Counted from the first letter of the stretch, positions 29,617-58,816 are shown. The stretch is 64,000 nucleotides of DNA from Candidatus Uhrbacteria bacterium CG_4_9_14_3_um_filter_41_35 (GCA_002791275.1 PFWT01000009.1:211357-275356); one strand, 5' to 3'. The notes: generated by a model from the sequence alone, not told the origin. A program made the numbers and translations.

Positions 29617-29666
29617 GCAGGACTCTTAAAATCTATAAATAATTTTATAAACTTTAAGAGTCCTGC
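29617..29666. promoter_or_regulatory. 16-bp perfect inverted repeat (ttgcaggactcttaaa / tttaagagtcctgcaa) around an AT-rich spacer, upstream of the 28936-29583 gene
   Basis: Seen directly in the sequence. No T-tract follows on either strand, which favours an operator over a terminator. Confidence 0.3.
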
Positions 29667-30900: not shown

Positions 30901-31237
30901 GACCTCCTTCTGTTGTTTTTTGGCTACTTTCTGATCTCATCATTATTACCGACTTTAAGAAAAATCGGCAAATGCTAAGACCAATAAGTAACCAAAAAAC
31001 TTTGTGCAATGTCGGCTATTCTGAAGCACGACGACGCAACTTAACACAAGCTAAAGTATTTGTCAATAGTCTCTTAGCAAAATAAAAAACCCACTCGGAA
31101 GGCTCGAGATCTAGTCATAATAAGGAGGAGGTATTACGATTTGACACTCGAGCCATCGAAGCAGGCTTTTCAGTGCTGAGACCTTAGCAAAGCCTCAAAA
31201 ATCTGTCAACGGATTTACATTTTTCAGCAGATTTTTC

Positions 31238-38652: not shown

Positions 38653-38674
38653 CAACTGCTAGCTTCCCAAATAA

Positions 38675-38709
38675 CCCCGTGTATCGAAAGGTACCGGGGC
38701 GTTTTTTTT
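38675..38709 (+). terminator. Rho-independent terminator after the GC-rich gene (preceded by a second hairpin at 38644-38667)
   Basis: Hairpin ccccgtgta...taccgggg followed by T8. Confidence 0.7.
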
Positions 38710-38793
38710 GACTAGGATTTAGATCTTTGGTACAGTCTTACATCACGATTAACAAAAAAAATCGTGAATGATCTTTCATGAACAGGAGTCAAA

Positions 38794-40089: not shown

Positions 40090-40215
40090 GGCCTCACCCC
40101 TTTGCTAGTTTGCTGGCCGAGGGGATTTTTTTATTAACTTAGCGAATTAAGTTATATTCAACCAGCTATTGCACGATTTTTAATAATCTGATACTCTACC
40201 TGCACGAATTACCAA

Positions 40216-40771: not shown

Positions 40772-42562
40772 ATGACAAAGATCAGCAAGATTTCATCAAT
40801 CATTCTGGGAGTTGGACTTGTTCTTGGTATCGGTGCGCCAAGCAGTTCGTTTGCGGCAACAGACCCTGGATTAGGTGCGGCCTCGACCTTTTCAATCATC
40901 GCCCAAACAGCAATTACCAGAACTGGAACCATTGCTAATGATGTGGGCTTAAATAGCACAGGTGCTGGTATCACAGCGCTCACGGACCTAATGGTTGGTG
41001 GGACTATCTACTCTTCGGATGGAGTGGCACCGAGTACCGCTACGCTTGATCCGAGTGTTCAAGCTAACCTTATAACGGCTAACGGTAATATTTCAGGACA
41101 AGGTTCGACTGCAAGCATTGGTCCAGCGCTTGATGGTTTAAGTCTTGTTCCTGGCGTTTATGACATCGGAGCTGGTCGTCTAAACGGTGGCGTGCTTACT
41201 CTAGATGGAGCTGGAGTCTATATTTTAAGAGCCTCGAGCGACCTTATTTCCTCTGGTTCAATTAATTTTATAAACGGAGCAACAGCTTGTGATGTTTTCT
41301 GGCAAGTTAATTCCCTGGCAACTATCAATGGTAGTTCGTTTGCTGGAACGATTATTGCAGGAACAGGTGTTCATTTTGGGCCTAACGTCACTTTAGCGGG
41401 TAATGCGCTAGCGCTCGGTGGTGACGTAACTTTAAAAAATACAACAATTTCTGCACCAGTTTGTACCGCTGTAGTGCCGTCAACATCAGATATTTATAAC
41501 ACAATTACAGTTATTAAAAATGTTATCAACGATAATGGCGGAACATCTACTTTTAATGATTTCCTTCTTTACGTTGGTGGAACACACGTAACTAGTGGTC
41601 AAAGTGTTCCTTTTCAAGCGGGTACTTATGCTGTGACTGAAACAGGTGTATCTGGTTATTCAGCAACATATAGCGGTGATTGTAACGCAAGCGGTATGAT
41701 TCTTCACGGTGGAGCTAGTACTCGTAACCACATTTGTTTTATTACAAATGATGATATTGGAGCACCCGTAGCGATCCCACCGGTACCACCACTTATTGAT
41801 ATCATTAAGGTTCCAAGTCCAATCAATCTCCCAAATGGGCCCGGTCTTGTAACTTATTCTTTCGCACTCACTAATATTGGAACCGTGCCGGTTACAGATA
41901 TTACTGTAATTGACGACTCATGCAATCCGTTGTTCATTTCTGGCGATCTGAATAATAATAGTGCCCTGGATCTTACCGAAACCTGGAGATATTCTTGTTC
42001 AAAGACCCTGACTGAAACCTACACCAACACCGTTGTAGCAACAGGTTGGGCAAATGGAATTAACGTTAGCGATGTTGCAGACGCAATTGTTACGGTTGGC
42101 ATTCCAGTTGTGCCACCAATAATTCACGTAACAAAAGTTCCAAGTCCACTTATACTCTCAGCTGGTGGTGGCACAGTTACGTACACTAATAAAGTAACTA
42201 ACCCAGGTATAGTTGCTTTAAGTAATATTTATCTTGCAGACGATAAGTGCGAACCTGTTGAATATATCTCCGGTGATATTAATAACGATTCAAAACTTGA
42301 TGTAACAGAGACCTGGACTTACACTTGCCAAACAAATCTAACTACAACTACTATGAACACAATCACCGCGAGTGGTGATGCTAATGGATTGACTGCCAGA
42401 GACTTTGCTAGGGCAACTGTTGTAGTAAACGCTGCTGTTCCGAAGTTACCAAACACTGGAATAACTTCTGCAAAATCAGGTAGCTATACGGGTCTTGTAA
42501 CCGTAAGTCTTTTGACACTCGCTACCCTATTCTACTTGGGTCGAAAGCAACAGCTAATTTAG
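40772..42562 (+). CDS. LPXTG-anchored surface protein with N-terminal ice-binding-like (DUF3494) β-helix domain and two DUF11-type repeats
   Basis: Signal peptide. The motif GAASTFSIIAQTAITRTGTIANDVGLNSTGAGITAL matches the DUF3494 start (GaAanFaVLAgstvTnTG.s.i.GdlGvsPG). Two roughly 80-aa repeats (KVPSP.NL..G.G.VTY...TN.G.V.......DD.C.P...SGD.N....LD.TETW.Y.C) are present. The C-terminus has LPNTG, a hydrophobic segment and GRKQQ. Confidence 0.7.
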   Translation: MTKISKISSIILGVGLVLGIGAPSSSFAATDPGLGAASTFSIIAQTAITRTGTIANDVGLNSTGAGITALTDLMVGGTIYSSDGVAPSTATLDPSVQANLITANGNISGQGSTASIGPALDGLSLVPGVYDIGAGRLNGGVLTLDGAGVYILRASSDLISSGSINFINGATACDVFWQVNSLATINGSSFAGTIIAGTGVHFGPNVTLAGNALALGGDVTLKNTTISAPVCTAVVPSTSDIYNTITVIKNVINDNGGTSTFNDFLLYVGGTHVTSGQSVPFQAGTYAVTETGVSGYSATYSGDCNASGMILHGGASTRNHICFITNDDIGAPVAIPPVPPLIDIIKVPSPINLPNGPGLVTYSFALTNIGTVPVTDITVIDDSCNPLFISGDLNNNSALDLTETWRYSCSKTLTETYTNTVVATGWANGINVSDVADAIVTVGIPVVPPIIHVTKVPSPLILSAGGGTVTYTNKVTNPGIVALSNIYLADDKCEPVEYISGDINNDSKLDVTETWTYTCQTNLTTTTMNTITASGDANGLTARDFARATVVVNAAVPKLPNTGITSAKSGSYTGLVTVSLLTLATLFYLGRKQQLI

Positions 42563-42636
42563 TTGCGGTATGTAAGAGTCAGTTTATAAATGCCAGGCAT
42601 AATTTTGCCTGGCATTTAGCTAGATTTTGAAAAAAT

Positions 42637-43266
42637 ATGCGATCAATAATTACACCAAAAAAAGCTACATATATATTTTTCCCCTCAGGTATAATTCTTT
42701 CTGTTGCCCTTTTACTAAATATTATTCCCCAGAATTCTGTGAATAATAATATAAATCCGACCATAGAAAATAACGTAGTAATTTCTGATGTGGTGCCGGT
42801 AGTAAAACAGATGATTAGTATTGGCTCACCCGTAAGACTTGAAATCCCAGCAATTAACATTAATACTAATATTATTTCCGTAGGATTAACTCCGACTGGC
42901 GCAGTTGCTGTTCCCGATAATCCATTCGAAGTAGCCTGGTACAATCTCGGATCTAAGCCGGGAGAGACCGGTAGTGCAGTTATTGATGGTCATTACGGCT
43001 GGATTAATAACGAACCAGCTGTATTTGATGATTTGAATAAATTAAAAACAGGTGACGAAATTTTTGTCGAAGATAAAAACGGTAGAATTATTAATTTTAA
43101 AGTCCGCGAAATAGCTATTTTCAAAAAAGATGATGATGCCGTAAACGTATTTTTATCAAACGACGGCAAGGCGCACCTCAATCTAATCACCTGCACCGGT
43201 GATTGGAATAAATCAGAAAAAACTTTTTCCGAGCGACTTGTAATATTCAGTGATGTTGCTGAATAA
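42637..43266 (+). CDS. Sortase (class E/F-like transpeptidase)
   Basis: N-terminal TM anchor, the LEIPAININ motif, catalytic His in GHYGW, active-site LNLITCTG (TLxTC) and a conserved Arg region. Located immediately downstream of the LPXTG substrate gene. Confidence 0.8.
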   Translation: MRSIITPKKATYIFFPSGIILSVALLLNIIPQNSVNNNINPTIENNVVISDVVPVVKQMISIGSPVRLEIPAININTNIISVGLTPTGAVAVPDNPFEVAWYNLGSKPGETGSAVIDGHYGWINNEPAVFDDLNKLKTGDEIFVEDKNGRIINFKVREIAIFKKDDDAVNVFLSNDGKAHLNLITCTGDWNKSEKTFSERLVIFSDVAE

Positions 43267-45585: not shown

Positions 45586-46350
45586 CTACCTCTGAAACAA
45601 AACCGTGAAATAGCTCGTTGTAGAGTGAATATCTTCATTTAAGATAATTGCCGAGTTTGAATGATCCAGTTGAATTTGATCATTAGCTCCAAGAATATCC
45701 ATTACCGACAGAAGTGTAATTATTGAAGGTGGTGAATCTAAATAATCACTATTCATTTCTGAAAGTTGGCCATAGTCTTTTTTGAGCATGGCGTCGTACG
45801 TTATCTCATCATTAATATTCGCCTGTTCAAGATTCAAATAATGCGAAAAATCAACGGATGCGATAATCAGAGTATTTTCCCTGGCAAGGACCTGCGCAAG
45901 CTGTGCAGATTCTGAAATACCGTGCCTTGAACTGAGAATAATTGAGACAACCTCCGCCTTCGGAAAATATTCCTGCACATAAGGCAGTAATACTCTAACT
46001 GAATACTCCTCAAACATCACAGAATCGTCCACAGACATATATCCTTCTCTAACAAGCTGTTTTCCAAGGCTGGTACTGAGCGTATCACTATTTATGATCG
46101 CATCAGTATTGCCAAGTTCATAGTGATTCGGGCCGATTAAGATAATCGTTGCAGGATCTGCATTCTGCCTCATTTTCTGAAATGCCTCTTCGATCAAACC
46201 TTCTGCAAGATCGTGGTGAGGCACAATAGCACCCACCACGATTTTACTTTCGGCTCTACTTTCACTATTCAGATTTTGTTTTGTTTTCTCTATCCTGACT
46301 ACCACCATAAGTAGCAAAACAGCTAAAACAAAGACAATTAATTTCTTCAC
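45586..46350 (-). CDS. Memo-family protein (AmmeMemoRadiSam system protein B-like)
   Basis: Signal/TM N-terminus and the motifs GAIVPHHDLA, IILIGPNHY and ASVDFSHY, which resemble the conserved metal-binding motifs of the Memo-family fold. Confidence 0.65.
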   Translation of the reverse strand: MKKLIVFVLAVLLLMVVVRIEKTKQNLNSESRAESKIVVGAIVPHHDLAEGLIEEAFQKMRQNADPATIILIGPNHYELGNTDAIINSDTLSTSLGKQLVREGYMSVDDSVMFEEYSVRVLLPYVQEYFPKAEVVSIILSSRHGISESAQLAQVLARENTLIIASVDFSHYLNLEQANINDEITYDAMLKKDYGQLSEMNSDYLDSPPSIITLLSVMDILGANDQIQLDHSNSAIILNEDIHSTTSYFTVLFQR

Positions 46351-46351: not shown

Positions 46352-49300
46352 CTATTTTACAGTTATCTCTAGCGCGTCAGAAAAGCTCTGAATGCTAGGA
46401 ACTTTCATTGAATTAATCATGATCGGTTCAACTGTATAAGTTCCCGGATTTGTAACTCTAACGTAATACTTGAAGTAATCACGGCTAGCGTTGTAGCTAC
46501 TAGAATCTGCAGTGAACTTAATTCTTTGACCATCAATTTGGTAAGGATATCGAATTGCTCCCTTTGTTGTATTATCACTATATCTATATGGTCTTGAGAT
46601 AATGCTCATACCGCTTGGAAGAACGTCGGTGATCTGATATTCACCTTCAACGGCATTTTCGATGAATTTAGGGTAAACTCGTACCTCAACAATTCCCCCT
46701 TCTTTAAAGGCATTTGTCTCTACCCCGTCCACGAAATACTTCCTATCTACATCCACATGACTATCATCTATTGAAACATCTTTTAGCGGGACTTCATAGT
46801 GACTTGTTACACCAAGATTTCCTTTAATGTCTAGTAACCGTATTGTGCGTCGCTGTTCCGGAGAAACGCTAATCGTGTGGGTTGAGCCTTTTTCAAGCTC
46901 TACGGTTTCTGTTTTACCATTTACCTCAACCTTAAAGCTCACTGCTCCAGGAACTAGAGTTGGTAGAGTTTTTCCAATAAAGATCGCTCTTTCTAGACTA
47001 ACAAGTCGCTCGTTTGATCTTGCAGTTGCAACATAATTCCATAAAGAATCTTTATGCTCAGCCTGTAATCCAGCTGCCAGCATTGAAGCTAGTGCCGAAG
47101 CTTCAAGAGTCTTATCTTTGTCATCCTCAACGTTAATTCGGATATAGTCTTCATAAGCCTCGCCATTTTCTGCCATGACTTCAGCATATAATGTTCTTGC
47201 ATTTTCTTTATCACCAATTTCCTCTAGCGCAAGCGCAATATAAAGTTTTTCTGTAACTGAAAGATCTTTGATTGCAGCCATATTTTGGATCTTCACAAGC
47301 ACTGGCTCGTTAAGTCCTGCTAATCCCCAAAGTGCCGTAGCAATTTCATCCGTATTCGATTTTTTATTTGCTACAACGTTATAGAAATAGCTCGCAAGCG
47401 CTTCTTTATCAACGTATTTTGCCCCAGCTACTGCTACTTTGGCGCTTAGCACAAGTTCACTGTCAGAATATGGTAGAAGTGAAATACCGCCGCCCTGTTG
47501 ATACAGTGACATATCTACTACATCACCAGTTTTAGGTTCTGCGAAATATGAATCAAGAAGATCCTGCCCGATTTGTCTGCTTAATTTTTGATCAACTCTA
47601 TCTCCATATCCCCATTTTAGTGAACGTAAACTGTTGTACAAACGTCCCTGATTTTCGTCAGAAAAGACAACTGTTGTGCGACCATCTTCCGCTCCGTCTA
47701 CAATCAGATCCTCACTACCAACAGCGAACTTTTGAATAGTTTCCATTAATCTTGATTCTACAACTGAAACTCTGAGTCGTAATGCGTCATTATAATCATA
47801 AGTTGAAGCTCCAAATGTAATACTATGCTCACCAAGTTTATCCGTAAGACTTGGTAGATCAAAGTATGTTGATTTGAAAGCTTTTCCATCCTTCGTCTCT
47901 TCAAGACCCAATGAATCTGACAACACGTTAAACGAGACAGTATCACCAGTTAAAAGTGCCTTACCAAAAGCTCTTACAGCAAAACTTGGCTTATCTGTGG
48001 TTAGATATTCGTCTGCAATAACCACATTAGCAAATATTGGTTTGGTAACTGGTAATTTAGTTACATCAAAACCTGCTTTGATGTCGCTTGAAATTGCCTG
48101 AGTTGTAATTCGCCAGGATGTAATATTGTCTGGCAAAGTGAAAGTAATTTCACCATTTCCGTTTTGATCTGTTTCCAAAGTTTTGAAGACAGCTGCATCC
48201 AAGAATGTTTCGCGAACACTTCCATCACCACCCTTGTCGTTATGAACATAAATATCGTTTGCAAGATAAGTGTGATATGTCTCCACATGGAAGTTGTATA
48301 CGTAAACCGGTTCATGTTTCCATTCGATTGAATCAATTCTCACCGGAAATCCTTCAGAGTTGATTAAAATATCTCCAACTTCAGCGTTTCCAATCACTTG
48401 CCAACCGCCGTTCATATAAACTTTGTGAACCGGAGTTACTTTAAGTGATCCGTTGATAATCATATATTCAGAAACATAGTGCTCAAAAGTTTCAAGAACT
48501 CGGCCTGGAACTAGTGTATTTGATTTTTCACTAAGTCTTGTGAGAATCATATCGCCAGCCTCTATATTCTCAATATTTTTCTTTGAGCCGTCTGCCATCG
48601 TGATCTGTGTTTCTCCTAAGAAGCAACCACCACCCTCGGCTCCACCCGGAATCGTTAATAATCCAGAATACTTATGAGAGAATGAATCGATTATTTCACC
48701 TCCTGGAACTGAAGCGTAAAGATTATCTAAGGTATTAACAGATTCGTTTGAAACCGCGTAATAAGCTTCGTCGACTACATTTACGTTTACGTTAGCTTTT
48801 TTCCCCGCGCCATTTTTATCTACAACTTTTACATTCAGTTTAACCTCTTCGCCCGGTAAATATTCTATTTTTTCAGTTTTTACCTGAATATTTAGTTCGC
48901 TATCCGCAGTATCTAGTTTCGCACCGCTGTAATTGAATTGGTTGCCTGCAATTTTGTATGTTTGTCCATCAAAATATACAGCCTTTAGCACAACGTTAGG
49001 TGCGTGTTTTTGTTCGAAGGTAAACGAATAATCTGCCGAAGAATCAACTTCGTAGGCCCGCAAACCTCTTTGAAGCTGATAGTATAAGAATTTATTTTCA
49101 CCATCTTGAACTCGTTCCTCATTATTTTGTAGCTCAAACTTTGCAAGATCGCCTAGTTTATAGGTCATATCTTTATCAAAGTTTTTTAAGAAGTAATAAT
49201 CACTACTGTATGCAGATCGATATTCAATTGGTGCGTATGCATAAGATGTAGCTTTGTTCATTCTGCCCTCGGCATCGACTACACTGATATTTACTTTGTA

Positions 49301-51943
49301 ACTTTTATCCTGTGTAATTGGGAAATTGTAGTGGTATTCACCGTTACTATCCGAGGTACCACTGAAATTTCCGATCTTATTTTCAATTTTATTATATCTA
49401 TAGGTTTTTCTAACAATTTTATTGATAAAATCGTAATATTCACCAGTTTCAACCCTATTGTATGTGATTTCGATAATGTCTCCTTCAATCCGCAAATCAG
49501 AAACAAGTTCGCCTTCACCACCTGCAAGATCAACGGACCTAACTGTCGCGTTAACTAAAGCAGTTCCGTTATTCCTGATTACCTCCTGATCAATGACGGC
49601 GTTTGCATTGTAAACATTTACGCGTGAGTATTCATTAATTTCTGCAACTTCTGAATTAACTGGACTAACAGATAGAGTCACACTGTTAACCAGGGGACAG
49701 TATGAGCTAGTTAAATTACAGGTTGAGATAACAGGAGTGTATGAAACACTCATCTTTCCGAACTCATCTGTTTTCAGTACCTTATCTACTGCTGATTTTG
49801 AAGTTCCAGAAACACGAACTTTAAATTCTGTATCTGGTAGTGGTGTTCCCTCAAAAAAGTTTGCAGAAATATCAAACTTTACATCTTCGCCAGCAAACAT
49901 AGCAGCCTTCGCTGGTTGAATATCGATACTATAAGCGGGTTTCGTGTAAGTTTGAACGTTGATATAACTACTCTGGATCAAATTGTCACCAACGAAAAAT
50001 TGAAGGTCGTAGTAGCCAGGTGTTGTATTCTCGAGATTAATCGAACCTTCGAAAATTCCATTATTCAAGATTATTTCCTGTTCCTGCAAAACAACATAAT
50101 TGTTATAAAAATCCCTATAACCATTACTTACGAGTTTCACGTGAACTGAATCTGTAGCTTTTAAATCACGATTCTTTACAAATCCCCAATATTTTATTTG
50201 ATCGCCAGGGTGGTACAATGATCTGTCGGTATAAATATACTTCCAATAATCAGATGCAGAGGTCGATGTATTATTATAGTAATAACCATTAAAACGGTTA
50301 AGTACCATAATTAATTCATCATTTCCAGCTTTGATGCTCATGATTTTTTTAAACGCATCTTGGCTGTTAGCATCGATAAGCTTTTCAGTTGCAAAAGTTG
50401 CGATACCAGTACTATTTGTGGTTGCTGTTGTATTATTTTCAGTGAAAGTAAGCTTCGCAGAGACCGTTGGTTGATCTGATTTTACATTATTTACCCAAAC
50501 AAGTGTGTCGGTTTCAGTTACCGTTGCGTAAGCTGAAAGATCCGTAACCTGAATAAATGCTTGTTTATCAAATCGGCTCGCTGACTTATTTTCGAGGACG
50601 TAAAAACCTTTTGGTAAAGACTCTGGCAAGACGAGAAAATGAATCCCGTTATTTACTTCACTAATTGTTTGTATTTCAAGAGTTGCGGTGAATATGCTAG
50701 ACATTTTTGATGTATCTACCAAAAACGCAGATTTTTGGTAGACTGACCAGTCTGGCACTGACATTTTGTCTGAAAGATCTGAAATAAAATCAGTTGAATT
50801 GTTGTATGCGAAAATTTCAACTTCAACTTTTTTTGCTTCTTCGCCGTACGCATAAACTGGGATTGCAATAGTATCTTCAGTTGAATATTGAAGTTCATTT
50901 TCAATAAATGAGACCTTCTGGCGATCATGTTGATTGGCATTATGGGCGCTTGATAATGTTTCAAATTGAAACACGTAATCTTCACCTAGAGTATTTTGAG
51001 AACCAACAACATGTGAAGCTCCGCTAACCGTAACGGTGTACACTGTCCCTTCTGCCAATATTTGAGGTACAAAAACAACTGTTTGACCATGTGTTTCAAA
51101 CCGACCATTCACTTTTGGTGAAATTGTAATGTGATTTTCTACATCTTCAACATTTTCGTGACTAAAAGTAACTTCAATCCCAGTTGAAAGTGGCACATTA
51201 CTTGAGTTCTTTCCTGGTAGCGTGTGTTTTACTTTAAAACTGTCCTTCACTTGAAAAGCCCAAGAATAATCTCTTTCAAAAGAAGTTCCATTTTCTGCAA
51301 TAAATGATGCTGAAATTTCAATATTATAAGTAGTATTGTTTTCAAGTGTCTTAATCGGTGTAACTTTAAAGGTGTGATCGTCGATTACCTCAAAAGTAAA
51401 TTCAGCTCGTGGGCTAAGCGAAATATTTTCTTTTAGTATTTCTGAATCCAAAGCCCCTTTGCTGGTGATAATAAAGCTGGTGTCCGCCTCGACTCCGGTT
51501 GAATCACCGCTTACTGGTTCAATTTCGAAATTATCCTGCGCGTAAGCAGGATCAAGAATCAAACGAGAAAACTCGCCAAATGGGCTAGATGGATTATTCC
51601 TTACTCCTGGCCAGTATTGAAATGTTGTGGCCACAATTGCAACGATTAACAAGCTAGAAACACCAACAACAACTCGCTGGTGGTGAAAACTTGCGAAAAA
51701 CGACATTATTTGCTTATTCATACTTTTTTCTGTTGAAGATGCTCTTTCGGTTCGTCTTGCCCGCAATATGTCCTGTTCTAGCTTTTCTTTGAAGTTAGAA
51801 GATGCGAGATGCGAATCCTGAGCATGCGTTATTAATTTATCTCTTACATTCAATAACGCACAAAGCTCAGGATCATTACAATCCTGCATTTGTTCCTTTG
51901 CCTTTAGAGCTTTTTCAAGCTTTTTTGCTTTTTTATTAAACAT
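46352..51943 (-). CDS. Giant (1863 aa) anti-sigma-factor-like membrane protein with extracytoplasmic Ig/MG-domain array, Hint/BIL domain, alpha-2-macroglobulin domain and thioester-less TED-like domain
   Basis: An N-terminal roughly 110-aa cytoplasmic segment (C-x5-C) precedes a TM helix (VVVGVSSLLIVAIVATTF). Many β-rich repeats follow. The Hint domain runs GGG|CFLGETQI...VYNFHVETYHTYLANDIYVHN. The A2M signature is RETFLDAAVFKTLETDQNGNGEITFTLPDNITSWRITTQAISS (cf. FPETWLW...FTLPDSITTWR). The TED-like region (LYQQGGGISL, LWGLAGL) has GYGD where the thioester CGEQ is expected. The start overlaps the ECF sigma gene stop by 8 nt. Confidence 0.7.
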   Translation of the reverse strand: MFNKKAKKLEKALKAKEQMQDCNDPELCALLNVRDKLITHAQDSHLASSNFKEKLEQDILRARRTERASSTEKSMNKQIMSFFASFHHQRVVVGVSSLLIVAIVATTFQYWPGVRNNPSSPFGEFSRLILDPAYAQDNFEIEPVSGDSTGVEADTSFIITSKGALDSEILKENISLSPRAEFTFEVIDDHTFKVTPIKTLENNTTYNIEISASFIAENGTSFERDYSWAFQVKDSFKVKHTLPGKNSSNVPLSTGIEVTFSHENVEDVENHITISPKVNGRFETHGQTVVFVPQILAEGTVYTVTVSGASHVVGSQNTLGEDYVFQFETLSSAHNANQHDRQKVSFIENELQYSTEDTIAIPVYAYGEEAKKVEVEIFAYNNSTDFISDLSDKMSVPDWSVYQKSAFLVDTSKMSSIFTATLEIQTISEVNNGIHFLVLPESLPKGFYVLENKSASRFDKQAFIQVTDLSAYATVTETDTLVWVNNVKSDQPTVSAKLTFTENNTTATTNSTGIATFATEKLIDANSQDAFKKIMSIKAGNDELIMVLNRFNGYYYNNTSTSASDYWKYIYTDRSLYHPGDQIKYWGFVKNRDLKATDSVHVKLVSNGYRDFYNNYVVLQEQEIILNNGIFEGSINLENTTPGYYDLQFFVGDNLIQSSYINVQTYTKPAYSIDIQPAKAAMFAGEDVKFDISANFFEGTPLPDTEFKVRVSGTSKSAVDKVLKTDEFGKMSVSYTPVISTCNLTSSYCPLVNSVTLSVSPVNSEVAEINEYSRVNVYNANAVIDQEVIRNNGTALVNATVRSVDLAGGEGELVSDLRIEGDIIEITYNRVETGEYYDFINKIVRKTYRYNKIENKIGNFSGTSDSNGEYHYNFPITQDKSYKVNISVVDAEGRMNKATSYAYAPIEYRSAYSSDYYFLKNFDKDMTYKLGDLAKFELQNNEERVQDGENKFLYYQLQRGLRAYEVDSSADYSFTFEQKHAPNVVLKAVYFDGQTYKIAGNQFNYSGAKLDTADSELNIQVKTEKIEYLPGEEVKLNVKVVDKNGAGKKANVNVNVVDEAYYAVSNESVNTLDNLYASVPGGEIIDSFSHKYSGLLTIPGGAEGGGCFLGETQITMADGSKKNIENIEAGDMILTRLSEKSNTLVPGRVLETFEHYVSEYMIINGSLKVTPVHKVYMNGGWQVIGNAEVGDILINSEGFPVRIDSIEWKHEPVYVYNFHVETYHTYLANDIYVHNDKGGDGSVRETFLDAAVFKTLETDQNGNGEITFTLPDNITSWRITTQAISSDIKAGFDVTKLPVTKPIFANVVIADEYLTTDKPSFAVRAFGKALLTGDTVSFNVLSDSLGLEETKDGKAFKSTYFDLPSLTDKLGEHSITFGASTYDYNDALRLRVSVVESRLMETIQKFAVGSEDLIVDGAEDGRTTVVFSDENQGRLYNSLRSLKWGYGDRVDQKLSRQIGQDLLDSYFAEPKTGDVVDMSLYQQGGGISLLPYSDSELVLSAKVAVAGAKYVDKEALASYFYNVVANKKSNTDEIATALWGLAGLNEPVLVKIQNMAAIKDLSVTEKLYIALALEEIGDKENARTLYAEVMAENGEAYEDYIRINVEDDKDKTLEASALASMLAAGLQAEHKDSLWNYVATARSNERLVSLERAIFIGKTLPTLVPGAVSFKVEVNGKTETVELEKGSTHTISVSPEQRRTIRLLDIKGNLGVTSHYEVPLKDVSIDDSHVDVDRKYFVDGVETNAFKEGGIVEVRVYPKFIENAVEGEYQITDVLPSGMSIISRPYRYSDNTTKGAIRYPYQIDGQRIKFTADSSSYNASRDYFKYYVRVTNPGTYTVEPIMINSMKVPSIQSFSDALEITVK
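48240..48625 (-). other. Hint (Hedgehog/intein-like) / bacterial intein-like (BIL) domain embedded in the giant protein
   Basis: An N-terminal Cys follows GGG (CFLGET). C-terminal block HTYLANDIYVHN is followed by Asp rather than Cys, Ser or Thr. This pattern favours a BIL-type domain over a canonical intein. Confidence 0.6.
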
Positions 51944-52505
51944 ATTTGCTATATTCTTCCTTAAATCTTGTTAGTGCTCTGTGAACCTTCACACCAGCGT
52001 TATTTCCTGAAATTTGCAGAACGTTAGCGATTTCATCATTACTGAGCTCGCCAAAAAACTTTAATTGTATAATTTCTTGCTCTTTTTCCTTCAATCTACT
52101 CAATACTTCCCGGATTTTCACGTTTTCTATCGATCTATCTGTAAGCAGTTCCGGCGCAAGTTCACCTGACTCAAGATGATGTATTTCCTCAATATCAACC
52201 TCTATTCGCCGACCTTTTTTCCGATAATGATCAATAATCGTGTTCGTAGCGATACGATACAACCAAGCTTTAAACGAACCAGTGCCTTTTTTGTAGGTAT
52301 CAAGCTTTGTAAAAGCTTTCATGAACGTTTGTGAAACTAAATCTTCTGTTGTTTGGCAGTGCCCGACCCTCTTTGCTGTATAGCCGTAAATTTTTTTAAA
52401 ATAAAATTCATACAAAACACCAAAAGCTTCGTCGTTTACCCTTGCTCTTTCAACAAGTTCTTCTTCGTTTTCAAGCACACTTTGATTTATATTTTTCTCC
52501 TCCAT
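51936..52505 (-). CDS. ECF-type RNA polymerase sigma factor (sigma-70 family, group 4)
   Basis: Region 2 (VLYEFYFKKIYGYTAKRV...EDLVSQTFMKAF) and region 4 HTH (EIANVLQISGNNAGVKVHRALTRFKE). 189 aa. Confidence 0.8.
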   Translation of the reverse strand: MEEKNINQSVLENEEELVERARVNDEAFGVLYEFYFKKIYGYTAKRVGHCQTTEDLVSQTFMKAFTKLDTYKKGTGSFKAWLYRIATNTIIDHYRKKGRRIEVDIEEIHHLESGELAPELLTDRSIENVKIREVLSRLKEKEQEIIQLKFFGELSNDEIANVLQISGNNAGVKVHRALTRFKEEYSKYV

Positions 52506-52667
52506 AATCTTAAACGTATAAAAAGCTTTTTGATTACAATAGTATACCAGAATATTATGGAAGTAAGTTTATAACCATATTAAAATTAATGATTTAGAAA
52601 AGGCCACGTCCCGTGCCTAATTTTTGCGTAAATAAAAAATCACAGGCTTCAACCTGTGATTTTTAAA

Positions 52668-53144
52668 TTATTTTGTTTCGTCTATCTGGACTGTGTTTTC
52701 GTCGATTGGTGGGATTACTATTTCCTGTTGTTTTGCTTGCTCAATCTGCGCCATTATTTCACTGTAAAGTGCTGACTGCATAACTAGAAGCTCACCATCT
52801 TTTGTAATTTTCAGCTCCTGATCTACCGAACCATCCGCTCCGTCTAGAACAAACTTTATGTCATAAAGACCATTCACTTCTTCAATACTTGTAAGAGTAT
52901 ACTTCTCAGCTCCAGCGGTACTGGCATCTACCAAACTAGCGATTCTTGTTGAAACTTCGTCCTGGCTTAGTACTTTCACATCTGAGCTTGGCATTTTAGC
53001 CTGAACTAGGAGAACCACAGCTACAACCGCGATTAAACTGCTAACTGCTGAGATGTTTTTCCAAAAATTTTGATTATTCTCCTTAACTGCCCGTGTTTCC
53101 ATCTTTACTTCTTCAACGTTCTCTGTTTTTACTTCATCTGTCAT
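52668..53144 (-). CDS. Hypothetical membrane-anchored protein (acidic N-terminus, single TM, extracytoplasmic domain)
   Basis: TM helix ISAVSSLIAVVAVVLLV. No recognisable family. Confidence 0.4.
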   Translation of the reverse strand: MTDEVKTENVEEVKMETRAVKENNQNFWKNISAVSSLIAVVAVVLLVQAKMPSSDVKVLSQDEVSTRIASLVDASTAGAEKYTLTSIEEVNGLYDIKFVLDGADGSVDQELKITKDGELLVMQSALYSEIMAQIEQAKQQEIVIPPIDENTVQIDETK

Positions 53145-53439: not shown

Positions 53440-53913
53440 ATGGATCAAGCAGAACTCCAAAATATAGCAAAACAAATATTTTCTACTATGCCAACTATGT
53501 TTCACGCTGTTATGCGAATGGCGCGTGAGGAAAATTTTGGTTTAGCGCCGAATCAGTTAAAAATCCTGAAGTTTCTGCAAGTTAATTCCGCTAAGCCTAA
53601 TATGATTGCAAAAATGCTTCAGGTGAGCGCCCCGACGGTTTCTGGGGCAATTGAAACCTTAGTTCAAAAGGGTTTAGTTCATAGAGTACCATCTACAACT
53701 GACCGGCGGGTTATTAATTTACACTTAACGCAGGCAGGTGGTGATCTCCTTGAGTCAGCCGAAAATAAAATGATGATCGCCGTTTCAAAAAAACTTGGAG
53801 TGCTTTCTGACGAAAAATTAGTTGAGATCGCTGAGTCTATTCGACTTCTTGAGAAGGTTTTCAGAAAACCTGGTAGCTCAGGATCCGAACTTGAAAACGA
53901 GTGCATAAACTAA
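53440..53913 (+). CDS. MarR-family transcriptional regulator
   Basis: Winged HTH (LAPNQLKILKFLQVNSAKPNMIAKMLQVSAPTVSGAIETLVQKGLVHRVPSTTDRRV). Confidence 0.8.
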   Translation: MDQAELQNIAKQIFSTMPTMFHAVMRMAREENFGLAPNQLKILKFLQVNSAKPNMIAKMLQVSAPTVSGAIETLVQKGLVHRVPSTTDRRVINLHLTQAGGDLLESAENKMMIAVSKKLGVLSDEKLVEIAESIRLLEKVFRKPGSSGSELENECIN

Positions 53914-53948
53914 ACTCACACCAAAATCAATATTCTAGATCAATTAAT

Positions 53949-55736
53949 ATGAAAAATTTCCTAAATTTACACTCAAAAATAATTATAGCTACTGGAGCAC
54001 TTGCCGTTTTAGCTGTCATAATATTTTCGTTTCTGAATTCAGATAAATCTGTTGATGCAGAAACCGATGCGAGTAATAATCTTACAACCCTCAAAGTTGC
54101 TGATTATCAGTCAGCCGTAGACACCGTGTACTCAAGCGGTGAAGTGATTTCTGAAAATCAAGCTACGATTAGAAGCGAGGCCTCTTCGCCCATTGAAGAC
54201 TTTTACATAGAAATCGGCGACCGGGTGCAGACTGGAGATTTACTGGTTGCTTTCAGGCACGATGATTTGAACGCACAATTAACCCAGGCCAATGCTGCAG
54301 TGACGCGAGCTAAAACCGCGCTTGAAGCTCAACAGATGGGAGCTAAAGAAGAGGACAAAGAAAAGGCCAGACTTGCAGTTGAGCAGGCTAAGCTTGGGTT
54401 AACGCAAGCGACTTTGAATTTGAATCAAATTAAATTAGCGCAAACTAGTTCTGAAAATGCTGTTAATGAGGGAATTCAACAATTGTACAAAACAAGTTTA
54501 AGTACGCTTGACGCAAGTGAGCAAACACTGGTCGATTCCTTGGCAACCATCTCGGATTTACAAGTTGATTATTTTAACTGTTCCTCTGATCAAATCTGCT
54601 ACGTAATTGGCAAAGAAAAAGGCACAGCTATTAAAACCTACTTTGCTAAAGAAGGTGCTGATAAATGGAACGCAACTAGCGTTCGCGGGATAAACTCTGG
54701 CTACGCTGAGAAATTAGCTAATTTAAAAATAGCCGAAGCGCCAGACTGGATACTTCGTAGTGAAATTTTAGCTGCACAAATTGTAACTTTGAAACACATT
54801 CAAGCATCACTCACAGCAATTCAAGAAGGTTTTACCCAACCAGTCGCTAACCAAGCGTCTGCTAGCGCTCAAGCCAATACGGCCACAACTTTAGCTACAG
54901 TGAATGCTAAAATTAGTGTTCTTGAAAGTTTACAAACTTCGATAAACGAAGCTGAAGGTTTTGGTTTAGTTGGAGGTGAACCAAAATCTATCGATGACGC
55001 TAAACGTCAGGCCTACCTAGCTATTACTACCGCTGAAACAGCGGTAACAAACGCTACGGTAGCTGTACAGATGTCAGAGCAAACACTTGCTCAAATTGAA
55101 AATGGTCCGCGAGCTATTGATCTTCGACCTTTTGAAATTGGTGTGATTGAAGCCGAGGCAAATTATGCAAATGTTACATCTCAACTACGCCGAGTAATGG
55201 TACGTGCGCCTTTTGACGGTATTATTTCAAGTTTGTCTGGCAATGTTGGTGAGCTAGTTCCCGCTGGACAGCCACTTGTTACAATTGTTGAGCCGAATTT
55301 GATTGAAATTAAAGCTTACGTAAGTGACAAAGATCTTGGAAGTTTTGATCTGCATTCTTCGGTTAAAATTAATGGTAAGAACGACGGCGTGTTAACTTTT
55401 ATTTCACCAAGTATTGATCCGCAAACTCGAAAAGTTGAGGTACATATAGCTGTTTTAGATGAGGCTTCGCTTCTGATTGGTCAATATGTTGATATTGAAA
55501 TCGGAAGTACAAATAAAGAAAAAAGTAAATATTATTTACCGCTTGAGAGTGTAAAACAGTCTCAACTTGGTTCTGTGGTCTACCGTATAAATTCAGATAA
55601 TTTAATGGAAGAAATTCCCGTTGTGACCGGTGACGTGATTGGAGAAACTATCGAGATTACAAGTGGGCTTAATATAGGCGACGAACTAGTTGTTAATGCT
55701 AGAACCGCCAAAGCTGGTAACAGGGTAAGCAAGTAA
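53949..55736 (+). CDS. Efflux transporter periplasmic adaptor subunit (membrane fusion protein, HlyD/RND-MFP family) with extended coiled-coil
   Basis: N-terminal TM helix, a biotinyl-lipoyl-like half (IEIGDRVQTGDLLVAF), a long α-helical hairpin, and a β-barrel/MP domain (VMVRAPFDGIISSL). Start chosen at MKNFLN so that it does not overlap marR. Confidence 0.7.
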   Translation: MKNFLNLHSKIIIATGALAVLAVIIFSFLNSDKSVDAETDASNNLTTLKVADYQSAVDTVYSSGEVISENQATIRSEASSPIEDFYIEIGDRVQTGDLLVAFRHDDLNAQLTQANAAVTRAKTALEAQQMGAKEEDKEKARLAVEQAKLGLTQATLNLNQIKLAQTSSENAVNEGIQQLYKTSLSTLDASEQTLVDSLATISDLQVDYFNCSSDQICYVIGKEKGTAIKTYFAKEGADKWNATSVRGINSGYAEKLANLKIAEAPDWILRSEILAAQIVTLKHIQASLTAIQEGFTQPVANQASASAQANTATTLATVNAKISVLESLQTSINEAEGFGLVGGEPKSIDDAKRQAYLAITTAETAVTNATVAVQMSEQTLAQIENGPRAIDLRPFEIGVIEAEANYANVTSQLRRVMVRAPFDGIISSLSGNVGELVPAGQPLVTIVEPNLIEIKAYVSDKDLGSFDLHSSVKINGKNDGVLTFISPSIDPQTRKVEVHIAVLDEASLLIGQYVDIEIGSTNKEKSKYYLPLESVKQSQLGSVVYRINSDNLMEEIPVVTGDVIGETIEITSGLNIGDELVVNARTAKAGNRVSK

Positions 55737-55738
55737 GT

Positions 55739-58700
55739 ATGTGGAATTTTCTAGTTATACATCAAAAATTTACAATCATAATTATTCTCGCACTAACAAT
55801 TGCGGGGCTTGTTTCCGTAAACCAGCTACCAAAAGAATCAGCTCCGGAGGTAAATATTCCGTTCATCATTGTCTCTACGCCATTTCCAGGCGCAAACGCT
55901 CTTGATGTTGAAAGTTTCGTTACCAACAAAATTGAGGACAATGTTTCTAGCATTGAGGGACTGAAAAATTTAACCTCAACTTCAGCACTTGGTATGTCGA
56001 GTGTAGCGCTTGAGTTTAATGTTGGAGTTGATATTGATAAAAAACTCACTGAAGTAAAGGATGCGACAGATATAGCTAAGCTTGAATTTCCAAGTGATGC
56101 CAAAGATCCGCTTGTTGCCAATGTTAACTTTAACGATACACCGATAAAAACTTACGCTTTGGCTGGCCCTTACAGCCGTGGTGAATTGCAACTTTTTGCT
56201 GAAGAATTAAAAAGTAAACTTGATCAATTGCCAAACGTAGACAGTATTAGTCTAAGCGGTGGCGATAGTGAGCAGGTGCAAATCCTGATTGAGCAGCGCA
56301 GACTTGATCAGTTCGAGCTTTCACTGAACCAAGTTGTGCGAGCTATTCAGTCAGCAAACAGCAATATTCCAATCGGAAGCATTGAGTCGAGCAATAGTGA
56401 TATTTCTGTTCGTTTTGATGGCACAATCAATACTATTAACGACCTTAAAAGAATTCCGCTTAGCCTGAAAAATGGTGCGCCAATTTTTGTTTCCGATGTC
56501 GCTGAAGTTATTTACGGAACTGAAGATAAAACCTCGAGTTCATATTTAAGTACCGATAACAAAGTTTCAAACCCTGCCATATCAATCAGTATTGTGAAAT
56601 CGCCAGGTGGAGATATTTTAAAGCTCGTTAAAAAAGCAGATGAAATAATCTATAGTTCAATTGGCACCACCCTACCAGAGGATCTTCAGGTAGAAGTTAT
56701 TGACGACAGTGCCGAACAAATTAAAGCTGATCTAGGTAACCTAAGTATGAGTGGTCTTGAGACCACTCTGATCGTTACGCTTCTGATTTTCTTCACACTC
56801 GGTTGGCGCGAGGCAATTTTGACTTCACTTTCGATCCCGCTAACTTTCCTGATTACTTTTCTAACCCTGGATTTATTCGGCTACACTCTTAACTTTTTAA
56901 CTCTATTCGCATTAATTCTGGCGCTAGGAATTTTAGTTGACGGTGTAATCGTGATCACGGAAGGTTTGCACTCAAATATCAACAAAGGCTTACCACCAAC
57001 CAAGGCTGCACTTGCAACCATTGCTGAGTTTGAAAAACCACTTATTGCCGGTACCCTAACAACTATTTTTGCTTTCGTACCAATGCTTCTTACCTCTGGA
57101 ATGATCGGACAGTTCATTAAATCAATCCCCGTAACTGTGAGTATCGTTCTCTTCTCCTCGCTCTTTATCGCGCTTGGCGTTATTCCAACACTAGGCACTT
57201 CCCTACTTGGATTGAAGACAAAACCTGGCAAATTTAAGACTCTAACAGATAAGCTTGAGAGTTTTAGAGAAAATTCTATTTTTTATCTACAAAATATTTA
57301 CTCAGGGATAATTGATAAATTCCTGTACTCAAAACCCGCACGAAAAAGTCTTGCTATAATTTTGACTTTTGCTTTTGTGGGATCGCTCGCACTGCCAGCG
57401 CTTGGAATTTTGAAGGTTGATATGTTCCCAAGCAGTGATACTGAGCGCGTATACATTGATTTTTCCTTACCTCAAGGGACTGCACTTTTTGCAACTGAAA
57501 AAACAATGACTGAAGTTGAAAAATATTTGCATAATAAGTCTGAAATAAAATCTTATTTAATTAGCAGCGGAGCCGGTTCTTCGCTCGGTGGTGGTACTGG
57601 TTCAAATATCGGTTCGGTAAATATTAACCTTACTGAAGAGAGACGCGATAGCCGAAAGATTACCGCTGAAATTGAACGTGAAATTACGAGCCTGGTACCT
57701 GAAGCAACCATTTCCGTTGCGCAATTGAGCAGTGGTCCGCCTTCTGGCGCTCCGGTTGAGATTTCTATTGCTGGTCAAGATCTACAGACACTTGAACAAA
57801 TTGCCGAAGAGTTCAAAAAAATTATTACTGAAATTCCAGGCACAAAATCCGTGACAACTTCGGTAGTGAATACTTCTGGAGAGTTTGTATACACCATTAA
57901 CCGCGCAGTTGTAGCCAGATATGGGTTGTCGCCAACTGAAGTGGCGACAACTATGCGAACTGCTTTGTTTGGTAGCACTGTGGCAACTCTTAGTCTAAAC
58001 GGTAACGACATTGATGTTGTAGCAACCTATAAACTAAGCGAAAATGACACTAAACGAAATGCGATTGAAATCGCAAAACTTTCGAGTATCACCATGCAAA
58101 CGCAGTTTGGTGATATTCCAATTTCCACATTCCTAGATACGAATTTGAAACCAAGTCAGGCCTCAATTCCGCACAAGGATGGTGAACGAATTGTAACAGT
58201 CACTGCTGATGTTGAACTTGGTGTTGTGGCGCAGGATGTTTTTACTGAAGTTAAAAAAGAGATGGTAAAAATTGATATTCCCGGCAAATACACCGTAAAA
58301 CTCGGTGGGCAAAATGATGACATCACGCAGTCGTTCACGGACATGGCTAAAGCTATGGTGCTCGGCATCTTTATGATCGCCGGACTGCTTGTTTTGCAGT
58401 TTAATTCATACAAACAACCACTCATCGTCCTCTCCAGTATTCCGCTCGCACTGATCGGGGTTTTACCCGGACTCGTGATTGTGAACCAGACGCTGTCGTT
58501 CCCGGGAGTCATTGGTGTAGTGGCACTTGCCGGAATTGTGGTGAATAACGGGATTATCCTAATTGACCGAATTAACGAAAATCGTCTCGCTGGCATGGAG
58601 ATTCTAATTGCTGTAAAAGAATCAACCATGAGCAGATTAAGGCCAATTCTACTAACAACCATCACAACGGTAGCAGGCCTAGTCCCGCTAGTAATCAGTC

Positions 58701-58816
58701 AACCCGAATGGGCTTCCCTTGGTTACGCTATTATCTTCGGACTAATCTTCTCCACGGTTTCGACTTTGATTGTGGTACCGCTCCTTTACGCAGGGATTGA
58801 GAAACATAGAAAATAA
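55739..58816 (+). CDS. RND-family efflux transporter permease (AcrB/HAE-type)
   Basis: 1025 aa with 12 TM helices, two large periplasmic loops and typical RND motifs (GIVVNNGIILIDRINE). Confidence 0.85.
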   Translation: MWNFLVIHQKFTIIIILALTIAGLVSVNQLPKESAPEVNIPFIIVSTPFPGANALDVESFVTNKIEDNVSSIEGLKNLTSTSALGMSSVALEFNVGVDIDKKLTEVKDATDIAKLEFPSDAKDPLVANVNFNDTPIKTYALAGPYSRGELQLFAEELKSKLDQLPNVDSISLSGGDSEQVQILIEQRRLDQFELSLNQVVRAIQSANSNIPIGSIESSNSDISVRFDGTINTINDLKRIPLSLKNGAPIFVSDVAEVIYGTEDKTSSSYLSTDNKVSNPAISISIVKSPGGDILKLVKKADEIIYSSIGTTLPEDLQVEVIDDSAEQIKADLGNLSMSGLETTLIVTLLIFFTLGWREAILTSLSIPLTFLITFLTLDLFGYTLNFLTLFALILALGILVDGVIVITEGLHSNINKGLPPTKAALATIAEFEKPLIAGTLTTIFAFVPMLLTSGMIGQFIKSIPVTVSIVLFSSLFIALGVIPTLGTSLLGLKTKPGKFKTLTDKLESFRENSIFYLQNIYSGIIDKFLYSKPARKSLAIILTFAFVGSLALPALGILKVDMFPSSDTERVYIDFSLPQGTALFATEKTMTEVEKYLHNKSEIKSYLISSGAGSSLGGGTGSNIGSVNINLTEERRDSRKITAEIEREITSLVPEATISVAQLSSGPPSGAPVEISIAGQDLQTLEQIAEEFKKIITEIPGTKSVTTSVVNTSGEFVYTINRAVVARYGLSPTEVATTMRTALFGSTVATLSLNGNDIDVVATYKLSENDTKRNAIEIAKLSSITMQTQFGDIPISTFLDTNLKPSQASIPHKDGERIVTVTADVELGVVAQDVFTEVKKEMVKIDIPGKYTVKLGGQNDDITQSFTDMAKAMVLGIFMIAGLLVLQFNSYKQPLIVLSSIPLALIGVLPGLVIVNQTLSFPGVIGVVALAGIVVNNGIILIDRINENRLAGMEILIAVKESTMSRLRPILLTTITTVAGLVPLVISQPEWASLGYAIIFGLIFSTVSTLIVVPLLYAGIEKHRK

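Follow-up and report, generated by a model that had tools for sequence, protein, structure and literature searches.

What does a giant macroglobulin-like surface protein do directly behind a sigma factor gene, and are the two partners? The question is raised by a 64,000-nt stretch of DNA (the window) from Candidatus Uhrbacteria bacterium CG_4_9_14_3_um_filter_41_35 (GCA_002791275.1 PFWT01000009.1:211357-275356), a member of the candidate phyla radiation (CPR). On its minus strand, open reading frame (ORF) calling finds three tightly packed genes, which encode an extracytoplasmic function (ECF) sigma factor, a membrane protein of 1863 amino acids (aa) whose ectodomain resembles alpha-2-macroglobulin (A2M), and a Memo-like protein. 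CPR/Patescibacteria are largely uncultured and mostly episymbiotic, and to our knowledge their surface biology is almost unknown. An initial annotation, made by a model from the sequence alone, had seen in this locus an ECF sigma factor coupled to an anti-sigma-like sensor. Our answer, which we hold to be reasonably probable, is that the operon encodes an autoregulated sigma/anti-sigma pair in which a predicted self-processing macroglobulin-like surface protein serves as the sensor.

Operon Layout and Sigma Factor

The ORFs of the initial annotation were reproduced to the exact coordinate (Table 1), as was the 8-nt overlap of the sigma stop with the start of the giant gene (ATGTTTAA, read from the sequence), and the motifs it had quoted were located at residues 1244-1254, 1268-1285, 1481-1488, and 1538-1544 of the giant protein. 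A single nucleotide separates the stop of the giant gene from the start of the Memo gene. “Hypothetical protein COV92_00850” of Candidatus Uhrbacteria matches the giant protein with 100% identity. The upstream neighbour (52668-53144), which encodes a small transmembrane (TM) protein without family match, ends in a hairpin (AATCACAGG-TTGAAG-CCTGTGATT on the minus strand) followed by a T-run; the sigma, giant, and Memo genes are therefore a unit of their own.

The first gene matches Sigma70_r2 (3.5e-17), Sigma70_r4_2 (5.5e-10), and Sigma70_ECF (5.8e-5) in Pfam, as well as TIGR02937 (107.7 bits, cutoff 42.9); together with the overlap, these matches bear out the proposal of an ECF sigma factor whose translation is coupled to that of a single-pass membrane protein. 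The closest specific NCBIfam model is TIGR02952 (BldN family), but its score of 156.1 bits stays below the cutoff of 206.45, and membership of the BldN family was rejected.

The N-Terminus as a Candidate Anti-Sigma Domain

Ahead of its TM helix, the giant protein carries a short domain for which AlphaFold2 (AF2) predicts three helices (residues 2-14, 25-41, and 51-79), with conserved positions at N23, L30, F51, L55, and R63. The N-terminal flank of the TM helix is rich in Arg and Lys, which implies an N-in/C-out topology. A cytoplasmic part of about 110 residues, bearing a C-x5-C motif and followed by one TM helix, had been proposed initially: the single helix stands, while AF2 shortens the cytoplasmic part to about 88 aa by placing the helix at residues 89-108. 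The two cysteines (C22 and C28) are not conserved among orthologues, and a zinc site at C-x5-C was excluded on this ground.

The evidence that ties this N-terminus to the sigma factor is comparative. We scanned one genome per species, analysed the best 80 loci of relatives, and scored the association on 65 complete related genes with upstream sequence. In 37 of these 65 loci, the giant gene is immediately preceded by an ECF sigma gene of the same orientation, mostly overlapping or within 20 nt, so the sigma/giant pairing is indeed found in other genomes. It accompanies 32 of the 37 proteins whose first TM helix begins at residue 45 or later, as against 5 of the 28 with a shorter N-terminus (Fisher p=2.8e-8, computed without correction for phylogeny); these five all have a TM helix that begins at residue 35-38. 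Four motif classes can be distinguished among the sigma-linked N-termini, each tracking its own sigma clade (by phmmer E-value) and its own promoter motif, and across the four classes the ectodomain stays homologous. Distant orthologues without the Hint domain described below (P0090, P0095, and P0104, all Chloroflexota-like) carry a zf-HC2 domain (23-26.8 bits, Pfam cutoff 22.2), and for P0090 and P0104, the two that were looked up, the gene immediately preceding is a Sigma70_r2 gene. Forms that begin with a signal peptide, P0082 for example, lack a sigma gene.

In functional terms, the window protein is single-pass, sigma-adjacent, and co-translated with the sigma factor through the 8-nt overlap, and its N-terminus co-varies with the sigma factor. 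The association, the co-variation of the classes, and the zf-HC2 orthologues beside sigma genes make it likely that a fusion of an anti-sigma head to an A2M-like body recurs across phyla, the putative sigma-binding heads being non-homologous. The anti-sigma role suggested by the initial annotation thus draws strong support from this comparative context, and none from profile searches.

One could equally picture the N-terminus as a mere signal-anchor with a charged leader, the sigma factor being regulated elsewhere and its adjacency reflecting a regulon instead of partner binding. We regard this as very improbable: N-terminal extensions are essentially confined to sigma-adjacent genes, they diversify in step with the sigma clade, distant orthologues bear a canonical zf-HC2 at the same position, and the start/stop overlaps imply stoichiometric co-translation. 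What speaks for a signal-anchor is that the N-terminus has no homology to known anti-sigma domains and that many orthologues have a bare TM anchor or a signal peptide.

Promoter and Autoregulation

The ECF-type promoter motif of the operon (Table 1) is found again directly upstream of the sigma start in eight related loci (L001, L004, L012, L013, L023, L050, L072, and L073), and other clades have motifs of their own (CGCAAC-N17-GTTATTG or TGTAATA-N16-NTTATA). Because the motif TGTAAT-N16-CGTTA is kept in front of the sigma gene, the operon is likely to be autoregulated by its sigma factor. A regulon search of the window with the pattern TGTAAT-N15-18-CGTWW gave no promoter match besides that of the operon itself and one inside the giant coding sequence; since the latter is compatible with chance, the only sigma target that can be named is the operon.

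This second match, an exact TGTAAT-N16-CGTTA at 51854-51880 (-) with the spacer length of the promoter, covers codons of a conserved CNDPE...CAL motif. At least two matches arose in 24 of 100 shuffles, and it is probably there by chance. A separate observation concerns the -10 element, whose end, in the window as in the eight related loci, lies just 5-8 nt upstream of the sigma start codon; so short a distance would imply leaderless or near-leaderless sigma mRNAs in these CPR lineages.

A Predicted Macroglobulin Body Without Its Thioester

Outside the cell, the protein would display about 1750 aa. AF2 models were built in two halves from alignments of full-length homologues (residues 880-1863, predicted local distance difference test (pLDDT) 85.7; residues 1-900, pLDDT 84.3), and for both halves Foldseek against the PDB returns E. 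coli ECAM and Salmonella A2M first, with best values of 4e-36 for the C-terminal half and 9e-26 for the N-terminal half (ECAM 5A42, then Salmonella A2M 4U48 at 1e-24). Vertebrate A2M, CD109, A2ML1, TEP1, and complement C3/C4/C5 come next, and a profile of the family matches ECAM by sequence (5e-27). In Pfam, MG2 (38.3 bits, cutoff 32.8), A2M_BRD (63 bits, cutoff 22.7; 5e-17), A2M (31.7 bits, cutoff 21; residues 1252-1306), and bMG10 (26.4 bits, cutoff 26.2) all pass, and a bMG3 match is weak. The A2M-like exodomain of the initial annotation is thereby upheld, and profiles and models together predict an A2M/TEP-family body from end to end, with an MG array, BRD, MG7, a CUB-like and a TED-like domain, and a C-terminal MG domain.

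The TED-like part was not matched by the Pfam TED model in the giant protein; it appears as helices at residues 553-783 of the C-terminal model, followed by beta domains. An hhalign comparison with the thioester-bearing bacterial A2Ms P0117-P0119 (99.7% probability, E 6.5e-26, 606 columns) aligns their CVEQ, CTEQ, and CNEQ with R1449-V-D-Q1452 (window 47588-47599), and R1449 is invariant in 53 family members. The position of the thioester cysteine is thus held by an invariant arginine, and there is therefore no TED thioester. Its loss had been recognized in the initial annotation; the residues it had named as the replacement of CxEQ, GYGD, are ruled out by this profile-profile alignment in favour of RVDQ.

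Cysteines are rare in the ectodomain, 1755 aa of which hold just three: C742 and C749, which form a conserved C-x6-C pair, and C1107. If the pair forms a disulfide, C1107 would be the lone unpaired extracellular thiol.

The C-terminal model (880-1863) is closer to activated members of the A2M family (template modelling scores of 0.43 for 4ZIQ, 0.42 for 4RTD, 0.42 for 6TAV, and 0.41 for 9FX3) than to native ones (about 0.27). This better fit to protease- or methylamine-activated forms may be a modelling artefact or reflect an “induced-like” resting state.

A Hint Domain in the Bait Linker

C1107 is the first residue of a Hint domain that sits between A2M_BRD and A2M/MG7. The initial annotation listed Hint just as a thing to check and left it out of its interpretation; the Pfam check gives a full, high-scoring domain at residues 1107-1235. 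Its catalytic set is intact and comprises C1107 as Cys1, T1170..H1173 in block B, and the C-terminal H1234-N1235, with D1236 at +1. Aligned with Hint-less homologues (GAEGGGGGD...R..F.D), the Hint-bearing proteins (GAEGGG/C...VHN/DKGGDG...R..F.D) have a clean insertion, and Firmicutes-type homologues have unrelated inserts of 30-60 aa at the same site, which we read as a hypervariable position equivalent to the bait. In the AF2 model, the domain hangs on two low-confidence tethers, with linker pLDDT below 50.

A census of 65 orthologues, 30-55% identical overall, finds the catalytic residues nearly invariant: Gly at -1 in 65/65 and at -2 in 62/65, Cys1 in 64/65, the block B T..H in 64/65, and His-Asn in 63/65. 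The +1 residue is Asp in 31, Glu in 24, Gln in 5, Ser in 2, and Asn in 1, never Cys or Thr; an acidic +1 residue followed by Lys is conserved across the Hint-bearing proteins. The closest PDB chain is the “bacterial intein-like domain” 2LWY (6.5e-12 with the single sequence, 9e-18 with a profile), followed by the Tetrahymena BUBL BIL2 chains 6TMM/6Y75 (3e-9); a RecA mini-intein reaches 3e-9 by profile, far weaker than 2LWY.

Cys1, TxxH, and the C-terminal His-Asn of inteins are all present. A canonical (class 1) intein was nevertheless rejected, as 63 of the 65 orthologues have no Cys, Ser, or Thr at +1; nor is the site that of a canonical intein, since the 129-aa mini domain has no endonuclease and lies where an exported protein has a hypervariable linker. 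Bacterial intein-like (BIL) domains of the A type cut at one or the other of their ends, and splicing occurs at times although they have no +1 nucleophile (PMC5874633). With its Cys1, its C-terminal His-Asn, no nucleophile at +1, and its place in a variable exported region, the domain fits the A-type BIL description and is predicted to process itself.

The same description suits a domesticated or selfish mini-intein-like element, an A-type BIL that would splice out after export and restore the Gly-rich linker and that would play no part in regulation or capture, so that the protein would mature into an ordinary A2M-like anti-sigma/surface protein without thioester. Indeed, A-type BILs without a +1 nucleophile can splice completely (PMC5874633), the predicted product ...GAEGGG-DKGGDG... 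is close to the linker of Hint-less homologues, and the Hint-less P0041 and P0043 nest in the Hint-bearing clade, as precise loss would have it, with the sigma-A2M-Memo operon kept. However, A-type BILs often just cleave (PMC5874633), and a selfish element fits poorly with a domain that has no homing endonuclease, that sits in the hypervariable linker of an exported protein and not in a conserved site of an essential enzyme, and that several hundred 50%-identity clusters keep at one site, its catalytic residues being invariant and its acidic +1 residue being followed by Lys. This retention argues for selection for activity in the host protein, not for parasitism, and we consider a domain that merely splices itself out unlikely.

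One has to keep in mind that the family has lost the TED thioester and gained a thioester-forming Cys1 after an invariant Gly-Gly. The Hint thioester could thus stand in for the lost one: an amine or hydroxyl of a target (candidates are a protease, a surface protein of the host cell, or a component of the cell wall) would attack it at Gly1106, and the target would become fixed to the N-fragment that is anchored in the membrane. What the sigma factor reports would in that case be capture, or the contact between an episymbiotic CPR cell and its host. BUBL BIL2, the second-closest solved relative, moves its N-extein onto a lysine through an isopeptide bond (PMC8616854), the Hedgehog Hint domain transfers to cholesterol (PMC5874633), the family is concentrated in CPR lineages, and CPR A2M-domain membrane proteins have been discussed in a context of host interaction (PMC8080830). 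Such capture or adhesion is pure analogy, however; the Gly-Gly may be mere linker flexibility, and the conserved C-terminal His-Asn would be superfluous for N-side transfer alone, all of which leads us to rate it as rather improbable. A long shot, too, is the wider proposal that an A2M-type trap has swapped chemistries, trading the side-chain thioester of the TED for an intein-type backbone thioester at the bait, so that the bait would cut itself or the N-fragment would be handed to a target amine (as in BUBL BIL2), with an ECF sigma factor reading out the event by re-expressing the trap. Were it true, the family would offer both a new covalent capture device, by a possible non-TED route, and a new class of ECF input, among the largest conserved surface proteins of CPR.

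Family Spread and the Memo Partner

Relatives are encoded in at least 584 species-level genomes. In a representative library of 1.84 billion proteins, 373 clusters (50% identity) match residues 1040-1320 at E <= 1e-30, and among the best 150 the match spans the whole BRD-Hint-MG7 query in about 135, inside proteins of 1.7-1.9 kaa. The family, which has an added Big_5 domain, occurs in CPR, where it is concentrated, and in Chloroflexota-like and Firmicutes-like genomes; one homologue is named “YfaS (alpha-2-macroglobulin family)” by its JGI source.

The third gene of the operon was correctly named from the outset as a Memo-family gene lying directly downstream of the giant one (Pfam Memo 1e-17, 64.7 bits, cutoff 27; TIGR04336 85.2 bits, cutoff 26). 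It is a conserved partner: a Memo gene is directly downstream in 37 of the 65 related loci, and it is present in Hint-less operons too. The window protein begins with a hydrophobic anchor or signal and is therefore predicted to be extracytoplasmic. No AMMECR1 or radical-SAM gene adjoins Memo in the window or in the related loci, its neighbours there being the A2M-like gene, the sigma gene, or a fused PGA_cap domain.

As to the fusions, Pfam identifies Memo-PGA_cap proteins (PGA_cap being like CapA, a poly-gamma-glutamate capsule protein) at L005:8113-10047 and L019:11207-12976; for the downstream genes of about 600 aa in L012, L026, L031, L051, L053, L060, L064, and L068, the same fusion is suggested by their length. 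Such fusions, which are often what follows the A2M-like gene, hint that the Memo partner may act on a surface polymer or modification.

Two further observations were made on the related loci. In L025, L032, L047, L048, L049, L055, and L064, the longest A2M-like ORF was obtained with genetic code 25 (UGA = Gly) and not with code 11. Cases of the L025 type may be real recoding, as in Gracilibacteria/Absconditabacteria-type lineages; in L032, L049, and L055, the code-25 ORF overlaps the downstream Memo gene, and a genuine stop may have been read through. In addition, many metagenome-assembled genomes with a CPR-type protein are labelled “uncultured Gammaproteobacteria/Pseudomonadales”, “Flavobacteriales”, or “Nanoarchaeia archaeon” (L005, L009, L014, L015, L020, L024, L026, L031, L032, and others). 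These are probably taxonomic mislabels or mis-binned contigs, gene content and neighbours being patescibacterial.

Proposed Mechanism

We propose a mechanism in three steps, of which the first two are likely and the third is speculative. Acting as an anti-sigma domain, the 88-residue helical N-terminus would keep the sigma factor tethered to the membrane. On the extracellular side, the Hint domain would turn the Gly1106-Cys1107 bond into a thioester and/or cyclise Asn1235, with the result that the bait linker would be cut or spliced by the protein itself and not solely cut by an attacking protease. Finally, the ectodomain might be switched when the bait is cleaved, whether a foreign protease or Hint makes the cut, or when the thioester passes to a target; the anti-sigma domain would be destabilised, the sigma factor freed, and the operon transcribed again to replace a single-use surface trap. 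In ECAM, a disordered bait (Arg923-Leu942) lies between the corresponding domains, and once it is cleaved the BRD is no longer tethered, which leads to a large conformational change (PMC4498604). By analogy with it, the passage from bait cleavage to loss of the anti-sigma domain and re-expression is speculative and the weakest of the three steps, and so is the initial suggestion that protease attack might be the signal.

Several observations count against this proposal. Searches of Pfam and NCBIfam with the whole protein and with residues 1-113 matched no anti-sigma family, returning noise at E values up to 10; a profile of 19 type-1 N-termini found no match among all PDB sequences; and hhalign of the window-type N-terminus with the zf-HC2 N-termini of distant orthologues gave an E of 0.23, so that a class I anti-sigma domain (ASD/zf-HC2, H-x3-C-x2-C) was rejected for the window N-terminus. 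Besides the uncorrected phylogeny behind the Fisher test, some sigma-linked N-termini have only about 35 aa, five loci have a long N-terminus and no adjacent sigma gene, and in L009, which looks like a rearranged version of the operon, the sigma gene (12460-13032) comes after Memo rather than before the A2M-like gene, with a pre-TM N-terminus of about 53 aa. The Hint domain is some 1000 residues from the membrane, and the stub remaining after a cut there would be huge, whereas RsgI/SEAL and FecR are cut next to the membrane, an autoproteolysis that in RsgI/SEAL feeds site-2 proteases; among the approximately 45 window ORFs scanned against Pfam, no site-2 protease gene (Peptidase_M50) was found. 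Protease trapping by a body without thioester is putative, and cleavage, splicing, and transfer by Hint cannot be told apart from the sequence. Lastly, Hint-less sigma-A2M-Memo operons exist (P0068 from Kerfeldbacteria, P0059, and P0043), P0043 having a type-1 N-terminus like that of the window and falling within the Hint-bearing clade in a rough neighbour-joining tree; Hint is therefore dispensable for the sigma logic.

Conversely, Hint-bearing proteins stand without a sigma gene in 28 of the 65 loci. Since the sigma module and Hint each occur without the other in relatives, the core of the system, as the comparison presents it, would be the A2M-like protein, often with Memo, to which the sigma head and Hint are separable additions.

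HtrA/DegS-type enzymes carry out the site-1 cleavage of some anti-sigma factors. The window encodes an HtrA/DegS-like protease (weak Trypsin_2 plus PDZ) at 31982-33100 (-), which is not linked to the operon.

The autoregulated sigma/anti-sigma pair proposed here would be a new sensor class for ECF sigma factors, and the family amounts to a natural experiment on bait cleavage in A2M-type proteins, the cut being, as predicted, built in. The Hint-bearing fragment is small enough for E. coli, so the central predictions can be checked.

Features and Surroundings in the Window

Table 1. Features of the sigma/giant/Memo operon, in window coordinates. Residue numbers refer to the giant protein.
Feature	Coordinates	Strand	Basis
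Hairpin and T-run of an intrinsic terminator closing the upstream gene; 5' boundary of the operon	52635..52664	-	Palindromic hairpin, listed on the + strand in the scan
ECF-type promoter TGTAAT-N16-CGTTTA, ending 7 nt before the sigma ATG	52512..52538	-	Read from the sequence
ECF sigma factor, 189 aa, sigma-2 and sigma-4 regions only	51936..52505	-	Pfam, NCBIfam
Giant membrane protein, 1863 aa: anti-sigma-like N-terminus, TM helix, A2M-like ectodomain with Hint insert	46352..51943	-	
Cytoplasmic N-terminal domain, residues 1-88; putative sigma-binding module	51680..51943	-	AF2, conservation, context
Single TM helix, residues 89-108	51620..51679	-	AF2; flanking sequence
N-terminal MG/Ig-like beta array, residues ~139-1063	48755..51529	-	Pfam, AF2 all-beta array, Foldseek
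Within the N-terminal array: Big_5 236-329, bMG3-like 466-528, MG2 569-649, A2M_BRD 927-1063		-	Pfam
Ectodomain cysteines C742, C749, C1107	49715-49717, 49694-49696, 48623-48625	-	
Flexible linker ending in GAEGGG, residues 1089-1106; N-extein end, bait-equivalent site	48626..48679	-	AF2, conservation
Hint/bacterial-intein-like domain, residues 1107-1235 (129 aa)	48239..48625	-	Pfam PT-HINT 9e-13, Vint 1.3e-7
A2M (MG7) domain, family signature LPDNITSWR	48026..48190	-	Pfam A2M 1.4e-7; invariant columns
TED-like all-helical domain, residues 1432-1662, no thioester	46958..47650	-	AF2 helices, hhalign
C-terminal MG domain (bMG10/CTMG), residues 1738-1846	46406..46732	-	Pfam bMG10 8.4e-6; AF2 beta-domain
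Memo-like protein, 254 aa, third gene of the operon	45586..46350	-	Pfam, TIGR04336

The rest of the window resembles a small CPR genome, with glycolysis genes, rpsB, lexA, dinB, fpg, and tmRNA. A few kb from the operon, 40772-43266 (+) encodes a 596-aa surface protein (Ice_binding-like, DUF7507, SpaA_2) followed by a sortase gene, likely a sortase-substrate pair. On the other side, 53440-58816 (+), which runs opposite to the sigma operon and its upstream neighbour, holds a MarR regulator, an HlyD-like adaptor, and an AcrB/RND transporter (584 bits); one would not expect an RND system of the tripartite style in a CPR bacterium thought to have no outer membrane. Two GC-rich islands (about 27500-31000 and 38000-40100) reach 0.50-0.53 GC against a background of 0.39. 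The ORF at 27595-28605 (-) has Cu-binding_MopE repeats (1e-24), and those at 30001-30900, 37732-38652, and 38794-40089 have no Pfam match; the genes of these islands may be foreign or of unusual composition.

Comparison with Known Systems

The domain order of the giant protein (MG array, BRD, MG7, CUB, TED, and C-terminal MG) is that of ECAM/YfhM and SaA2M (5A42, 4ZIQ, 4RTD, and 4U48), and, like type I bacterial A2Ms, it is anchored in the cytoplasmic membrane and faces outward from it. ECAM, however, is a lipoprotein whose thioester is CLEQ, whose protease bait is disordered, and whose partner is Pbp1C, whereas the giant protein has an N-terminal TM helix and a sigma-linked domain in the cytoplasm, RVDQ instead of the thioester, Hint in place of a plain bait, and Memo as its partner. 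In Gram-negatives, MagD belongs to the six-gene mag operon, a system for which we know of no sigma factor, Hint, or Memo. Type II MagD (Pseudomonas) and YfaS (E. coli) share with the giant protein an A2M fold without thioester (PMC5764988).

The Hint domain resembles the C. thermocellum BIL (2LWY), PT-HINT, and BUBL BIL2 in its Cys1, TxxH, and His-Asn, its missing +1 nucleophile, and its place in a variable region of an exported protein. Known BIL/PT-HINT domains serve toxin release or the processing of variable surface proteins; in the literature, we found none reported within an A2M-family protein or an anti-sigma factor.

The nearest regulatory parallels are RsgI/SEAL and FecR/FoxR, in which an ECF or sigma-I-type sigma factor is held by a single-pass protein with an extracytoplasmic self-cleaving module (PMC10328401, PMC10556640, PMC12036975), cleavage being predicted in our case. 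They differ in that their cut is juxtamembrane and made at SEA-like or N-O acyl-shift sites, not by a Hint fold, and in that their sensors are small carbohydrate-binding or TonB-linked domains, as against an A2M-like body of 1750 aa here. Unlike in RsgI/FecR, the Hint module of the window family is also found in sigma-less proteins.

In CPR itself, Vampirococcus lugosii has A2M-domain membrane proteins of 1895 and 2368 aa, for which a defence against host proteases was proposed (PMC8080830). A2M-like proteins in CPR were therefore already known in passing; those of V. lugosii may belong to the same family, although that paper has no sigma pairing, Hint, thioester loss, or Memo (PMC8080830). 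Nothing was found in the literature that combines A2M with an anti-sigma or ECF sigma factor, or a macroglobulin with Hint/BIL, and the main text of the ECF re-classification paper mentions neither A2M nor Memo nor CPR. The initial view that the arrangement had not been described is thus to be narrowed: CPR A2M membrane proteins were known (PMC8080830), while the pairing with a sigma factor, the loss of the thioester together with the gain of Hint, and the association with Memo seem not to have been described before.

A last comparison is with complement C3/C4/C5, of the same superfamily as the giant protein. Where A2M has its bait, these proteins carry an inserted anaphylatoxin domain and a processing site, and they are activated by cleavage there. 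The complement insert is cut by convertases or furin, whereas the insert of the giant protein is predicted to be the cutting enzyme itself. Every part of the system is of a known kind, and it is the combination of an A2M fold, Hint autoprocessing, and an ECF sigma/anti-sigma pair that appears to be new.

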